Part shown: positions 3,305 through 35,679 of the stretch, one piece after another
Layout: each line of letters opens with the position of its first letter
Position numbering within the stretch: the first letter of the stretch is position 1
Assembly (NCBI RefSeq): GCF_024298765.1
Contig: NZ_CP101210.1
Source: Escherichia coli
Lineage (GTDB): Bacteria; Pseudomonadota; Gammaproteobacteria; Enterobacterales; Enterobacteriaceae
Length of the DNA stretch: 64,000 nt
Reading direction: 5' to 3' (one strand)
Notes under the pieces: model-generated
Database searches by the model: none
What the model saw: the letters and a program-made list of their open reading frames with translations, nothing else
What the model was told of the DNA's origin: nothing
Program-made: the position numbers and the translations under genes

Positions 3305-3700
3305 TCACATTTCATAGGTAATGACATACGTCAGATCGGCAGAACTCCACAAGCCCGCATCATCGTCGCGCCGGTAGTCATAGCCACTGGCCACCATACT
3401 GGTGATCAAATCTGACAGTGCCGGGATATCGCTCATCACCGGATAAATCCGGGACTCCATCCACGCATCCAGCTCTGAATCCGGCACCTGAGCAGGCAGG
3501 AAAACTTCAATATGCAGCTCCGCCTGCCAGGTATCGCTGTCCAGCTCTTCGCCCGTGTATTCAGCGCCGGTGAGATAAACGGCAATTGCCGGAAAATCTT
3601 CCTCATCAAAAACAGCAGGGCGACCATCAAAAAACGTCGCCCCGGTGTCATGCTTCTCCAGTGCATCCAGTACGGCTGCACGGAGTTCAGTATGTTTCAT
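3305..3700 (-). CDS. U: tail terminator protein U
   Basis: 131 aa [16 protein letters not shown]..., lambda gpU. Confidence 0.9.
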
Positions 3701-4275
3701 CGCTTTATTACCATCCTCAGTTGATGCTGCAGCGCATAGCCCAGCTCTTTCGGAAGACGCTCACGCCGTATCCGCTCAATATTCTGTTTAAACGCCGTGG
3801 TCAGCGGCACCGCCATCGGGATTTTCACCACATCAATGGGGTAACGGTTTTTCCCGGCCACACGCTGCATGACATGCCAGCGGCCATTTTTCAGTTGCTG
3901 AATAAACGCGCCGGGAATACGACGGTTTCCCACCACAAGCACGCTGCCGCCACCTTTCAGGGCTGAACGCTGCCCCTTTTTACGACGCCTGCGTCGGGAC
4001 AGGACAATCCGCGCGTTACCCAGCTTTATTACGGGCAAATCCCCCCGGTTAACCTTGATTCTGGCCTGCGGATTTTTGACCGTGGCCCTTTTCAGCCAGG
4101 CCCTTTCCTTTACCAGTTTCCGGCGTACCTTTGTCTCACGGGCAACCTGTGACGCCGACTGCGATATCGCGGATGAAGCAACGCGGTTAATGGCCATTGC
4201 GGCGGCACCGGGCACCGCCGTTCTGCTGATACGGCTGAGGTTTTCAACGGCCTGCTCAAGACCTTTTATGGCCAT
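3697..4275 (-). CDS. Z: tail completion protein Z
   Basis: 192 aa MAIKGLEQAVENLSRIS..., lambda gpZ. Confidence 0.9.
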   Translation of the reverse strand: MAIKGLEQAVENLSRISRTAVPGAAAMAINRVASSAISQSASQVARETKVRRKLVKERAWLKRATVKNPQARIKVNRGDLPVIKLGNARIVLSRRRRRKKGQRSALKGGGSVLVVGNRRIPGAFIQQLKNGRWHVMQRVAGKNRYPIDVVKIPMAVPLTTAFKQNIERIRRERLPKELGYALQHQLRMVIKR

Positions 4276-30960: not shown

Positions 30961-31856
30961 AAATCCACCCCGTAAATCCAGTCAGTGTTTGTCAGGTCGA
31001 GTTTTGGTTTGCTGGCTGTCACGCCTGCCTGTTGCTTGTTACGGTTGATTTCGAGCTGGGTCCACTTGTCGCGGAGTTTGGCCGGACTCAGCACGTTACC
31101 GGACCAGAAGTTGTCCTGGCAGGCCCAGCGGAAAAGCACACACATATCGCGGTGGTTACGTCCGTCACGTTCACGCATCAGGCGGATATCGTTAGCCCAC
31201 CCAGCAAAATTCGGTTTTCTGGCTGATGGTGCGATAGTCTTCACCATGTCAAACATCCACTCTGCGGCGGTCAGGTCTTCTGCTGTCCCCCACTTGCTGC
31301 CGCTCTGAATTGCAGCATCCGGTTTAACCACAGAAAGATCGTTTTCTGGCTGGTCAGAGGATTCGCCAGAATTCTCTGACGAATAATCTTTTCTTTTTTC
31401 TTTTGTAATAGTGTCTTTTGTGTCCCCCTGTTTTGAGGGATAGCAATCCCCCAATTTGAGGGATGTTTTATCCCTCGTTTTAGGGGATTGTCCCTCGTTT
31501 TGAGGGATACACCATTCTGAGATGTTTTTATTTGGTCCAAACATGCCGCCTTGCTGCTTGATAATATTCATTCTGACGAGTTCTAACTTGGCTTCATTGC
31601 ACCGTTTGACAGGTAACTTTGTAATCTCGCTAAGTTGAGAATCGGTGATTCTGTCCATTGGTTTATTCCACCCATAGGTTTTACGCAGAATGGCAAGCAG
31701 CACTTTAAACTGTCGCTTGGTCAGATCTGCGCCCGAATAAGCCTCAAGCAGCATATTTGATAGTCTGGCGTAACCATCATCGAGATCTGCCACATTACGC
31801 TCCTGTCCGGCAAAGTTACCTCTGCCGAAGTTGAGTATTTTTGCTGTATTTGTCAT
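30957..31856 (-). CDS. O: replication initiator O
   Basis: 299 aa MTNTAKILNFGRGNFAGQERNVADLDDGYARLSNMLLEAY..., lambda O. Confidence 0.95.
   Translation of the reverse strand: MTNTAKILNFGRGNFAGQERNVADLDDGYARLSNMLLEAYSGADLTKRQFKVLLAILRKTYGWNKPMDRITDSQLSEITKLPVKRCNEAKLELVRMNIIKQQGGMFGPNKNISEWCIPQNEGQSPKTRDKTSLKLGDCYPSKQGDTKDTITKEKRKDYSSENSGESSDQPENDLSVVKPDAAIQSGSKWGTAEDLTAAEWMFDMVKTIAPSARKPNFAGWANDIRLMRERDGRNHRDMCVLFRWACQDNFWSGNVLSPAKLRDKWTQLEINRNKQQAGVTASKPKLDLTNTDWIYGVDL
31425..31520 (-). repeat. ori-lambda iterons inside gene O
   Basis: Four ~19-bp repeats tccctcaaaacgaggga / tcccctaaaacgaggga / tccctcaaattggggga variants, followed by an AT-rich tract. Confidence 0.85.
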
Positions 31857-31888
31857 AATGACTCCTGTTGATAGATCCAGTAATGACC

Positions 31889-32182
31889 TCAGAACTCCAT
31901 CTGGATTTGTTCAGAACGCTCGGTTGCCGCCGGGCGTTTTTTATTGGTGAGAATCGCAGCAACTTGTCGCGCCAATCGAGCCATGTCGTCGTCAACGACC
32001 CCCCATTCAAGAACAGCAAGCAGCATTGAGAACTTGGGAATCCAGTCTCTCTTCCACCTGCTGATCTGCGACTTATCAACTCCCACAGCTTCCGCTGTCT
32101 TCTCAGTTCCAAGCATTGCGATTTTGTTAAGCAACGCACTCTCGATTCGTAGTGCCTCGTTGCGTTTGTTTGCACGAACCAT
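31889..32182 (-). CDS. cII: transcriptional activator CII
   Basis: ORF 31889..32242; start MVRANKRNEALRIESALLNKIAMLGTEK... gives 97 aa, lambda CII. Confidence 0.95.
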   Translation of the reverse strand: MVRANKRNEALRIESALLNKIAMLGTEKTAEAVGVDKSQISRWKRDWIPKFSMLLAVLEWGVVDDDMARLARQVAAILTNKKRPAATERSEQIQMEF

Positions 32183-32257
32183 ATGTAAGTATTTCCTTAG
32201 ATAACAATTGATTGAATGTATGCAAATAAATGCATACACCATAGGTGTGGTTTAATT

Positions 32258-32275
32258 GGATGCCCTTTTTCAGGG
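32258..32275 (-). promoter_or_regulatory. nutR boxB hairpin
   Basis: Minus strand gccctgaaaaagggc between cro and cII. Confidence 0.7.
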
Positions 32276-32300
32276 CGGGGATGGGTAAGAGCGGGGTTAT

Positions 32301-33315
<1,015 letters not shown>

Positions 33316-33442
33316 TAGGAAGTAAGTTTTATGTTGACGGCACAGTCAACTTGGCATAGATTAATTAAACCAAGCCCAGCCCCGTTCGCAGACAATTGTT
33401 AATATCTGCATAACGGCTCTGGGCTATTTTTTTGGGACTCTT

Positions 33443-34300
33443 ATGAAGAAAGCAGCAATTTTAATTGATGCGGGTTTTTTCATGCAGCGTGTTCATGCTA
33501 CGCATCGTAAACACTTCGCCGAGCATGAACTGACTGCGCAATGCATAATGAAAGTAATATGGTCAATGGTTCTTTCCCATCTTAATGGAAAACGTCAATC
33601 ACAAGAACGTAGGGAACCGCTTGAGCTTTATAGAATTTACTTCTATGACTGTCCACCACTCGACATTCAAACACGCCTTCCACTTCCTGAGCCTGGCAAT
33701 AAGACGCCTGGTCGCAAGAATTTCAAACTCGAAAAATCATATATTCTGAGAACGGAGCTGCATGAAGAGTTAAGAAAAACTCGAAAAACAGCCTTAAGAT
33801 TAGGGAATCTTGTTGATAATAAGCGATGGCAACTAACTACATTCTCCCTTGATGCTCTGATGAAAGGAACGAAAAAATGGGATGAACTGACAAATGATGA
33901 TTTTTACTATGACATCAAACAAAAACAAGTTGATATCAAGCTAGGGATGGATATCACGACTTTAGCTTATGAAAAACTTGTTGATGTAATTGTCCTTGTT
34001 GCTGGGGACTCAGACTTTGTGCCTGCCGCCAAACACGCCAGAATTAAAGGTATTGATTTTATTCTTGATCCACTAAGACAGAATGTTACCCCATCACTGT
34101 CAGAGCACATTGATGGAGTTCAGTCATACAGCTTGATATCAGGACTTGCCGATGCTTTACATGTTGAGCCAGACCCGGCACCTGACTGGTGGGAAGATCG
34201 AAAAAAAGGCAAGCCTAGGGGAAAAAACAATAGCGGTAAACGCAGGTATGGAAACACTCAAGCTGAGTCTGCAAAGAAACATCAAAGAAATAAACGATAA
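33443..34300 (+). CDS. NYN-domain (LabA-like, PIN-like) putative nuclease occupying the rexA-rexB position
   Basis: 285 aa; MKKAAILIDAGFF... and VIVLVAGDSDFVPA motifs typical of NYN domains; basic C-terminal tail; downstream of cI on the same strand; not similar to RexA or RexB. Confidence 0.6.
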   Translation: MKKAAILIDAGFFMQRVHATHRKHFAEHELTAQCIMKVIWSMVLSHLNGKRQSQERREPLELYRIYFYDCPPLDIQTRLPLPEPGNKTPGRKNFKLEKSYILRTELHEELRKTRKTALRLGNLVDNKRWQLTTFSLDALMKGTKKWDELTNDDFYYDIKQKQVDIKLGMDITTLAYEKLVDVIVLVAGDSDFVPAAKHARIKGIDFILDPLRQNVTPSLSEHIDGVQSYSLISGLADALHVEPDPAPDWWEDRKKGKPRGKNNSGKRRYGNTQAESAKKHQRNKR

Positions 34301-34308
34301 TCCCATCA

Positions 34309-34336
34309 ACCCGGCCACCGAGCCGGGTTTTCTTTG
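34309..34336 (+). terminator. rho-independent terminator after the cI-NYN operon
   Basis: cccggccaccgagccgggttttctttg. Confidence 0.6.
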
Positions 34337-34479
34337 CCTCACGATCGCCCCACCTAAAAACACATAACCAATTGTATTTATTTTAAAATTAATAGGTGCA
34401 ACTCACTAAACAACGCAATTCTGATCTCTCGATCACCTCCCAAGCCACACAACCCTGCAAAAAATAAATCTATATAAAA

Positions 34480-34560
34480 AACATACAGATAACCATCTGC
34501 GGTGATAAATTATCTCTGGCGGTGTTGACACAAATACCACTAGCGGTGATACTAAACACA
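34480..34560 (+). promoter_or_regulatory. oL operators and pL promoter
   Basis: catctgcggtgataaa, tatctctggcggtgttgaca, taccactagcggtgatact arranged as in lambda pL. Confidence 0.8.
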
Positions 34561-34606
34561 CCAGCAGGACGCACTAACCCACATGAAGGTGATGCTCTTA
34601 AAAATT

Positions 34607-34623
34607 AAGCCCTGAAGAAGGGC
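34607..34623 (+). promoter_or_regulatory. nutL boxB hairpin
   Basis: gccctgaagaagggc upstream of N. Confidence 0.75.
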
Positions 34624-34781
34624 AGCATTCAAAGCAGAAGGCTTTGGGGTGTGTGATACGAAACGAAACATTGGCCGGAAGTGCGAATCCGGATTAGCTG
34701 CAAATGAGCCAATCGTGGGGTGTTTTCGTTCAGGACTACGACTCCCACACACCACCAAAGCTAACTGACAAGAGAATCCAG

Positions 34782-35679
<898 letters not shown>

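Follow-up and report, generated by a model that had tools for sequence, protein, structure and literature searches.

A NYN cassette in the place of rexA-rexB

Within a 64,000-nucleotide (nt) stretch of the Escherichia coli contig NZ_CP101210.1 (assembly GCF_024298765.1; this whole stretch is referred to as the window), a lambda-immunity prophage carries, in the place of the exclusion genes rexA and rexB, a cassette consisting of a structured 5' leader and a single gene for a NYN-domain protein (Table 1). The boundaries of the exchange were fixed by BLAST comparison with phage lambda, in which window positions 31842-33322 correspond to lambda 38700-37219 (97.9% identity) and 34308-35105 to lambda 35826-35037 (92.7% identity), with no match at all for the 33323-34307 interval between the two flanking blocks. 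This 985-bp cassette stands exactly where lambda has positions 37218-35827 (1392 bp; the rexA leader, rexA, and rexB). Homology to lambda ends 7 nt past the cI stop codon and restarts with the first base of the hairpin located 3' of rexB in lambda, the same hairpin that here lies 3' of the NYN gene. The G+C content of the cassette (0.411) deviates from that of cI (0.462) and of the window (0.496).

A preliminary description of the locus had proposed that one 285-amino acid (aa) protein fills the rexA-rexB slot and is followed by a terminator and then oL/pL, and the breakpoints and downstream features agree with it on both counts. The open reading frame (ORF) begins with ATG, 127 nt past the stop codon of the lambda-type cI, and the encoded protein has the N-terminus MKKAAILIDAGFF and an internal VLVAGDSDF motif. 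As 7035 database proteins match it at E ≤ 1e-3, the ORF was accepted as a real gene and not a chance reading frame. Its location is that of RexAB-type genes, between cI and pL/N of a lambdoid prophage, with no RexA or RexB homolog at the cassette, as judged by the absence of lambda homology over 33323-34307 and by the assignment of the protein to phrog_5783 and the NYN family.

Table 1. Annotated features of the cI-N region in the window
Feature	Position	Strand	Evidence
Lambda-type cI repressor gene, 237 aa (outside the cassette)	32602..33315	+	97.9% identity to lambda cI region; "LexA family protein" in identical E. coli records
Cassette (leader + NYN gene)	33323..34307	+	lambda homology breakpoints, low G+C
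Predicted sigma-70-like promoter, TTGACG-17 nt-TAGATT	33334..33362	+	promoter scan, 9/12
Leader RNA hairpin + U-run	33373..33433	+	folding, covariation, covariance model
NYN-domain protein gene, 285 aa	33443..34300	+	ORF, Pfam, PHROGs, alignment
Terminator-like G+C-rich hairpin AACCCGGCCACCGAGCCGGGTT + T-rich tail	34308..34339	+	-13.9 kcal/mol; scan bounds 34308-34329; lambda backbone, not cassette
Operators oL3, oL2, oL1	34491-34507, 34511-34527, 34535-34551	+	read from sequence, placed against lambda annotation
Predicted pL, TTGACA-17-GATACT	34525-34553	+	promoter scan
nutL boxB stem	34609-34623	+	hairpin scan
Antiterminator N gene	34704..35105	+	ORF as annotated in lambda and ev099

The NYN protein

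Profile searches placed the protein in the NYN family through a short core region. The Pfam NYN model (PF01936; i-E = 1.1e-8, score 36.1) matched residues 158-205 only, corresponding to model positions 72-119 of 145, and NCBIfam TIGR00288 (NYN) matched with E = 5.5e-7, far under its curated cut-off of 178 bits. The PHROGs match was to phrog_5783 (E = 1.5e-119), a family of 'unknown function', and a sequence search of the PDB returned nothing meaningful (best match, a nucleoporin at E = 0.08). Among the matches listed, all full-length homologs carry a precomputed PF01936 assignment, which the fragments P0029 and P0096 lack. An AlphaFold2 model built on 42 homologs was confident (predicted local distance difference test, 87.6; predicted template modelling score, 0.79) and displays the PIN-like three-layer alpha/beta/alpha fold with a parallel sheet. 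Its AFDB50 matches are exclusively uncharacterised 'NYN domain-containing protein' entries from many phyla.

In the alignment of the 42 homologs, which extends down to 41% identity, residues D9, D69, D164, D170, D189, D191, H222, and D224 are invariant, as are R114-K115, W129, and Q160-K161, and the conserved aspartates lie where the predicted core strands end or just past that point. This is the location of the metal ligands in the PIN-like superfamily, and for NYN about four such ligands, all conserved acidic residues, are predicted (PMC5499597). Because of the profile matches, the model, and the invariant aspartates at the core-strand ends, both the NYN assignment, first read from motifs that include VLVAGDSDF, and an intact predicted active site are supported. 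The product is most likely a metal-dependent NYN (PIN-like) nuclease and, in particular, an endoribonuclease. It is very improbable that it instead targets the DNA of incoming phages, and not RNA, as a nuclease of the FEN or restriction kind would.

The lysine/arginine-rich C-terminal tail noted in the preliminary description is present (14 of the last 36 residues, in a variable tail that starts at about residue 250). As it is restricted to enteric relatives, being acidic in Pseudomonas and missing in many members, it is not a feature of the family. The nearest NYN proteins are those of PF01936, the LabA-like COG1432 group, the NYN domain of MARF1 (5yaa), and VPA0982 (2qip), from which this protein differs in family-specific insertions at about residues 70-97 and 121-160, in a conserved C-terminal EH-DG / P..P.WW region, and in having no LOTUS/OST-HTH domain. 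For the bacterial LabA-like NYN proteins, the function is listed as unknown (PMC5499597).

The annotation 'NYN domain-containing protein' already exists, though RefSeq splits intact, 100%-identical copies of the gene into a 'PIN domain-containing protein, incomplete' and a 117-aa 'NYN domain-containing protein', among them a copy (locus L001, 4128-4985) identical to window positions 33443-34300. The split probably stems from the abundant truncated fragment of the gene in E. coli, and the record of phage ev099 annotates the whole 858-bp gene.

Promoter and leader hairpin

The 120 nt from the lambda breakpoint to the ATG are not a plain spacer and hold a predicted promoter and a hairpin. Transcription from this promoter, whose -35 element overlaps the inverted repeat TTGACGGCACAGTCAA (33334-33349), is predicted to start at about 33369-33371. 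The hairpin begins about 10 nt past the promoter (33373-33425; 53 nt, -24.0 kcal/mol) and comprises the helices AGCCCAG/CUGGGCU, CCGUU/AACGG, and GCAGA/UCUGC closed by a 12-nt loop, CAAUUGUUAAUA. It is followed by A + U7 (33426-33433), with 9 nt remaining to the ATG. By sequence, the hairpin and U7 have the shape of an intrinsic terminator at the extreme 5' end of the predicted transcript.

The inverted repeat (TTGAC-N6 or N9-GTCAA), one half of which is the -35 hexamer, recurs in many though not all relatives despite divergent spacers (loci L007, L009, L035, L046, L054, and L075) and may be the operator of some regulator. Flanking the -10 element, CTTGG (33350-33354) and CCAAG (33370-33374) are kept among enteric relatives and could pair in transcripts reading through from cI, adding a stem that stacks on the leader hairpin. 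No direct repeats of the tandem, ToxI kind were found in the leader. Two complementarities between the loop and the mRNA (I11 and I14) were dismissed as A/U-rich chance matches that are not kept in Pseudomonas, and a K-turn reading of the internal loop was rejected, there being no tandem G-A pairs.

Conservation of the leader

Leaders were compared across 77 loci from 80 species, among them members of the Alpha-, Beta-, Gamma-, and Deltaproteobacteria, Acidobacteria, Verrucomicrobia, Bacillota, Actinobacteria, Campylobacterota, and Planctomycetes, and all but a few of these loci have the same layout. The order of promoter, hairpin, U-run, a gap of 4-57 nt, and start codon is kept in Pantoea, Edwardsiella, Pseudomonas syringae, Halomonas, and Proteus; it was present in 35 of 35 distinct leaders from the 73 loci with an extractable leader (hairpins of -18 to -26.5 kcal/mol), and it recurs, with Bacteroides-type promoters, in Bacteroidota-like phage contigs from gut metagenomes. 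The distant leaders sit about 20-100 nt upstream of the NYN ORF (loci L095-L174; also L078-L094). Each of the 35 distinct leaders of the window's clade has a TTGAC-type promoter (8-12 of 12 positions), with 9-13 nt between the -10 element and the hairpin in most and 19-20 nt in one sub-form; two outliers in this distance are over-extended hairpin calls.

Compensatory change was pronounced in both forms of the leader. An alignment of 22 distinct leaders from the window's clade (A4) had 94.4% of cells paired and 52 double-sided changes, compared to 15.7 in shuffled alignments (0/500 shuffles as high), with such changes at 14 of 17 pairs, whereas sliding the partners dropped pairing to 27-45%. 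The inner helices of A4 covary as well (CG13/UA9, CG17/UA5, AU11/GC9). In the alignment of the widespread form (A3; 34 sequences), 93.9% of cells were paired and double-sided changes numbered 66, compared to 13.9 when shuffled (0/500 as high), and affected all 12 of 12 pairs. A covariance model of the window's form (R2) had one strong match in the 64-kb window, at 78.6 bits on the plus strand versus 23 bits on the minus strand, and on sequences outside its training set it matched only the 60-100 nt just before the ORF (59-83 bits). Because of this strand asymmetry and the frequency of G-U pairs, the comparisons indicate that the leader is a sense-strand RNA. With compensatory changes, a fixed position relative to the gene, and strand specificity, it has the attributes of a conserved cis-regulatory RNA.

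The widespread form has an internal loop in which A (30), G (33), U (34), and A (34 of the 34 sequences) stand opposite G (30), A (34), and R, and an apical loop with a near-invariant AU. AGUA/GAA is the signature of a bulged-G (loop E/sarcin-ricin) module, a common protein-binding platform, which this internal loop resembles in sequence. The window leader is a derived variant without the AGUA/GA internal loop, having instead CC/CU and C/AU internal loops and the invariant loop letters AU...UUA (UUA at 33399-33401), and the variant of leader RNA and the clade of the protein change together. A model of the widespread form (R1) independently matched the Bacteroidota leaders (E from 6e-4 to 0.45) and the window hairpin at E of about 1 only, with ordinary terminators reaching 15-20 bits under the same model. 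Homology between the leader forms at the sequence level is thus only suggestive, and it is their common position and architecture that make the case for one element.

In enteric relatives, identity of the hairpin is 100, 95, 90, and 88%, compared to 77, 74, 67, and 69% for the coding sequence and 72, 66, 60, and 56% for the promoter region; by these identities, constraint on the leader RNA exceeds that on the protein. Rfam 15 had no match to the leader in the window (E ≤ 1), in six relatives (gathering score), or in ten distant relatives (E ≤ 1), and the literature search found nothing on an RNA motif upstream of NYN or LabA genes.

An independent unit or part of the cI operon

The preliminary description had the gene co-transcribed with cI from pRM, in the manner of rexA and rexB. 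Slot and strand agree with that proposal, while the predicted promoter and the terminator-shaped leader ahead of the ATG do not. The possibility that the hairpin is the terminator of cI or of another upstream gene was rejected, as most other contexts, the Edwardsiella, P. syringae, Halomonas, Proteus, and Colibacter loci among them, have a divergent gene upstream, and for the same reason the hairpin was assigned to the NYN gene's own 5' leader. In lambda, there is no barrier between cI and rexA-rexB. Elsewhere, the slot holds a 345-aa phrog_6191 protein whose gene begins 22 nt past the cI stop codon with no promoter-hairpin element. In the window, transcripts from pRM or pRE would reach the leader hairpin and U7 before the NYN gene. 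From this arrangement, we infer that the gene is an autonomous, attenuated unit and not a plain member of the immunity operon.

Slot contents and genomic distribution

The contents of the slot were surveyed by searching 5426 complete E. coli genomes with a joined query of its cI and tImm-N flanks. They were rexAB; the NYN cassette; a 345- or 348-aa phrog_6191 protein; a pair of 88 + 216 aa; a pair of 145 + 123 aa (strain E2348/69); a pair of a 180-aa protein and a DUF1828 protein with weak matches to PADLOC PDC-M24A/B; or nothing (variant genomes at loci L178-L182). The slot is thus polymorphic, with four cargo types besides rexAB and the NYN cassette, as a comparison of rex-locus contents of the kind first suggested for this prophage makes plain. 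Nearly all of the alternative cargoes are uncharacterised. The cI-N region was already described by Owen et al. as a hotspot of mosaic diversity that holds rexAB, with bstA in the equivalent position (PMC8585504).

Phages ev099, 2B8, and E212 and many Stx2a phages have copies of the cassette that are 99.5-100% identical, and APEC O2-211 also carries it intact. The leader and the NYN gene co-occur in the same 274 of the 5426 E. coli genomes, 73 of which have the complete gene; in about 200, mostly O157:H7, a deletion has left only the leader and the first ~350 nt, next to an integrase. In Stx2a phages, the cassette follows a different repressor and a 113-aa ORF with a match to PADLOC candidate PDC-S43 (E = 7e-42); in phage Stx2_EH0505 (locus L003), this arrangement is seen at 3639-3980 and 3981-4127. 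As some 25 nt from the lambda cI 3' end (GAAGAGACGTTTGGGTGATAGGAAG) remain on this copy as a transfer scar, the cassette of the Stx2a phages was moved by recombination from a lambda-immunity phage.

The NYN gene was solitary at every locus examined, with no candidate protein antitoxin nearby. At 27 of 61 viral loci, an S24-type repressor immediately precedes the gene in the same orientation, at a distance of 128-551 nt; these loci include lineages that have different repressors and NYN proteins only 55-74% identical. Other prophage positions are next to the Q antiterminator, in either orientation, and next to the integrase at the prophage end. The distant members are single chromosomal genes next to glmS (Proteus), thi genes (Colibacter), or metabolic genes (Pseudomonas, Polyangium), and the family is not generally tied to defence islands.

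Function of the cassette

The cassette has the features of a 'moron': exact insertion boundaries, a predicted promoter at a conserved promoter-like site (35/35 leaders), a 3' terminator, and deviating G+C. We consider it about an even chance (probability of roughly 0.5) that this single-gene accessory element, sitting where a lambda-immunity prophage would have rexA-rexB (cI to tImm/pL), functions as a self-contained unit of a NYN endoribonuclease and an attenuating leader that the enzyme recognises, and that it acts on RNA against superinfecting phages. Under this explanation, a constitutive-looking sigma-70 promoter would be followed, 2-6 nt past the predicted start, by the conserved hairpin with its U-run, and transcripts from the cassette promoter, together with read-through from pRM/pRE, would mostly terminate at the leader, which would keep the nuclease low and leave a stable, short transcript (about 60-65 nt). 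The nuclease would bind or cleave its own leader hairpin, providing feedback control. In the lysogen, the low level of nuclease would exclude incoming phages by cutting their RNA or that of the infected cell, a role proposed by likeness to the other cargo of the cI-N slot. By that analogy, an anti-phage role is plausible, and the position is a reasonable prior for exclusion, no more.

Several observations weigh against this explanation or limit it. PADLOC-DB v2.0.0 gave weak, partial matches only, both around GDSD (HEC-09, E = 2e-4, residues 155-200; the NYN model PDLC01154, E = 1.4e-3, residues 164-206), with no full-length significant match of the protein to a defence model. PADLOC, NCBIfam, and PHROGs assigned the protein no functional name, and the literature search found nothing on this NYN gene or on any NYN anti-phage system. 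The promoter, the termination, and the nuclease activity are predictions from sequence and model. A simple terminator scan did not call the leader hairpin (loop >8 nt), and the fold of 145 nt was not unusually stable (z = -1.4). Since the leaders were extracted by their paired ends and T-run, covariation of the outer helix is partly circular, while the inner helices and conserved flanking motifs were under no selection in the extraction. The gene is dispensable in the ~200 E. coli genomes that keep only the truncated remnant. Lone chromosomal relatives among metabolic genes suggest an ancestral cellular RNA-processing role.

This last point leads to the alternative that survives best, though it is itself rather unlikely: that the protein is a cellular-type enzyme of RNA processing or decay with an autoregulatory leader, carried as non-defence cargo that might, for instance, tune the stability of host or prophage transcripts or lysogen fitness. 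The gene is single-copy over many phyla and occupies ordinary chromosomal neighbourhoods (glmS in Proteus, thi in Colibacter, and those in Pseudomonas and Polyangium), there is no defence-island context and no strong PADLOC match, and self-regulating leaders are typical of RNases and ribosomal proteins. This has to be set against the repeated occupation of classic phage cargo slots, here RexAB's own, and against the presence of PADLOC candidates among nearby slot cargoes (the PDC-S43 match and the weak PDC-M24 matches given above). E. coli RNase E, through its 5' untranslated region, ribosomal proteins, through their leaders, and mammalian Regnase-1 all recognise a hairpin in their own mRNA. 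The predicted NYN transcript likewise has a conserved structured element and differs in that its leader has the shape of a transcription terminator and, in the window variant, lacks the AGUA/GA loop.

It is also unlikely that the cassette is a type III-like system of toxin-antitoxin or abortive infection. In such a system, excess leader RNA would inhibit the nuclease, decay of this labile RNA upon phage-induced shut-off of host transcription would free the enzyme, and its attack on RNA would abort infection; the same principle could serve in prophage addiction. The order of promoter, structured non-coding RNA, intrinsic terminator, and endoribonuclease gene, with a single protein gene, is common to the cassette and to ToxIN, CptIN, and TenpIN, and the predicted terminator between RNA and gene is here the -24 kcal/mol hairpin with U7. 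The conserved apical and internal loop sequences are as expected of a protein-binding RNA, the RNA variant changes with the protein clade, and a gene that is always solitary offers no protein as the antitoxin. Tandem RNA repeats, however, were not found, the single hairpin is itself the predicted terminator, the NYN fold is not that of ToxN/AbiQ, and a regulated enzyme accounts at least equally for the stable copies that sit with housekeeping genes on chromosomes.

It is still less probable that the gene is simply transcribed with cI from pRM for nuclease-based exclusion, the hairpin being non-regulatory or mRNA-stabilising. The position and strand of rexAB are kept, the leader aside there is no terminator from the cI stop codon to the gene, an S24-type repressor lies directly upstream at the 27 viral loci, diverged phage lineages included, and RexAB and BstA are precedents for the slot. 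These points are opposed by the conserved promoter and hairpin-U7 between cI and the ATG, by the retention of the leader at loci without any repressor, and by the phrog_6191 cargo, whose close spacing to cI and lack of any such element are the truly operonic arrangement.

With lambda RexA-RexB, the cassette shares the slot, the strand (cI to tImm/oL-pL), and the lambda-immunity prophage. RexAB is a two-protein system of a sensor and a membrane protein co-transcribed with cI (PMC8585504), whereas the cassette encodes one predicted soluble NYN nuclease of no sequence relation, with a predicted promoter of its own and a terminator-shaped leader after cI. BstA of the Salmonella prophage BTP1 is likewise a single accessory gene just 3' of the repressor in many unrelated prophages; it also occurs outside prophages and has a built-in element that controls its own activity, the self-immunity element aba, described inside the gene (PMC8585504). 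BstA is not a NYN protein, the linked element of the cassette is a 5' leader RNA hairpin and not a within-gene aba, and anti-phage activity was shown for BstA, whereas for the NYN gene it is a proposal.

A wider proposal can be made tentatively: that the NYN protein and its leader form an undescribed, phylum-spanning RNA-controlled RNase module, with the RNA as excess inhibitor or target mimic (in the latter case, by analogy, one resembling the sarcin-ricin/loop E motif in most phyla), repeatedly captured by lambdoid prophages, here at the expense of rexAB, and expressed in the lysogen for abortive infection or exclusion. Neither a phylum-spanning leader RNA nor a self-regulated NYN cassette is described in Rfam 15, PADLOC 2023, or the literature searched. 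Textbooks place RexAB between cI and N, and with one recurrent cargo of that region recognised as a self-contained NYN unit, there is a concrete candidate for phage challenge. The leader hairpin is both a candidate substrate or ligand of the enzyme and a candidate attenuator, and it gives a handle on the bacterial LabA-like NYN proteins. If the RNA does inhibit or guide the nuclease, this would be a new class of RNA-controlled nuclease in prophage biology; otherwise, the cassette would still correct the assumption that genes of the cI-N slot are simply co-expressed with the repressor.

Other observations

In other lambdoid phages, the NYN cassette is found beside Q (locus L062, 3394-4822; locus L048, 3989-5242), in the slot that holds stx in Stx phages. 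The L062 copy points the same way as Q and its promoter matches the consensus perfectly (TTGACA-16-TATAAT), so that Q-modified polymerase might read through the leader during lytic growth. The Edwardsiella prophage that carries a NYN gene has Rfam matches to C4 antisense RNA and isrK by its anti-repressor region (locus L007, 10900-11088, minus strand), an ordinary immunity feature of the P1/P7 type.

Beyond N in the window, the place of lambda sieB is taken by an unrelated 167-aa ORF (35098-35601, minus strand; phrog_1244, unknown function) with two C-x-x-C pairs close to its C-terminus. PADLOC and NCBIfam gave no match to this ORF, which may be another swapped exclusion-slot gene.

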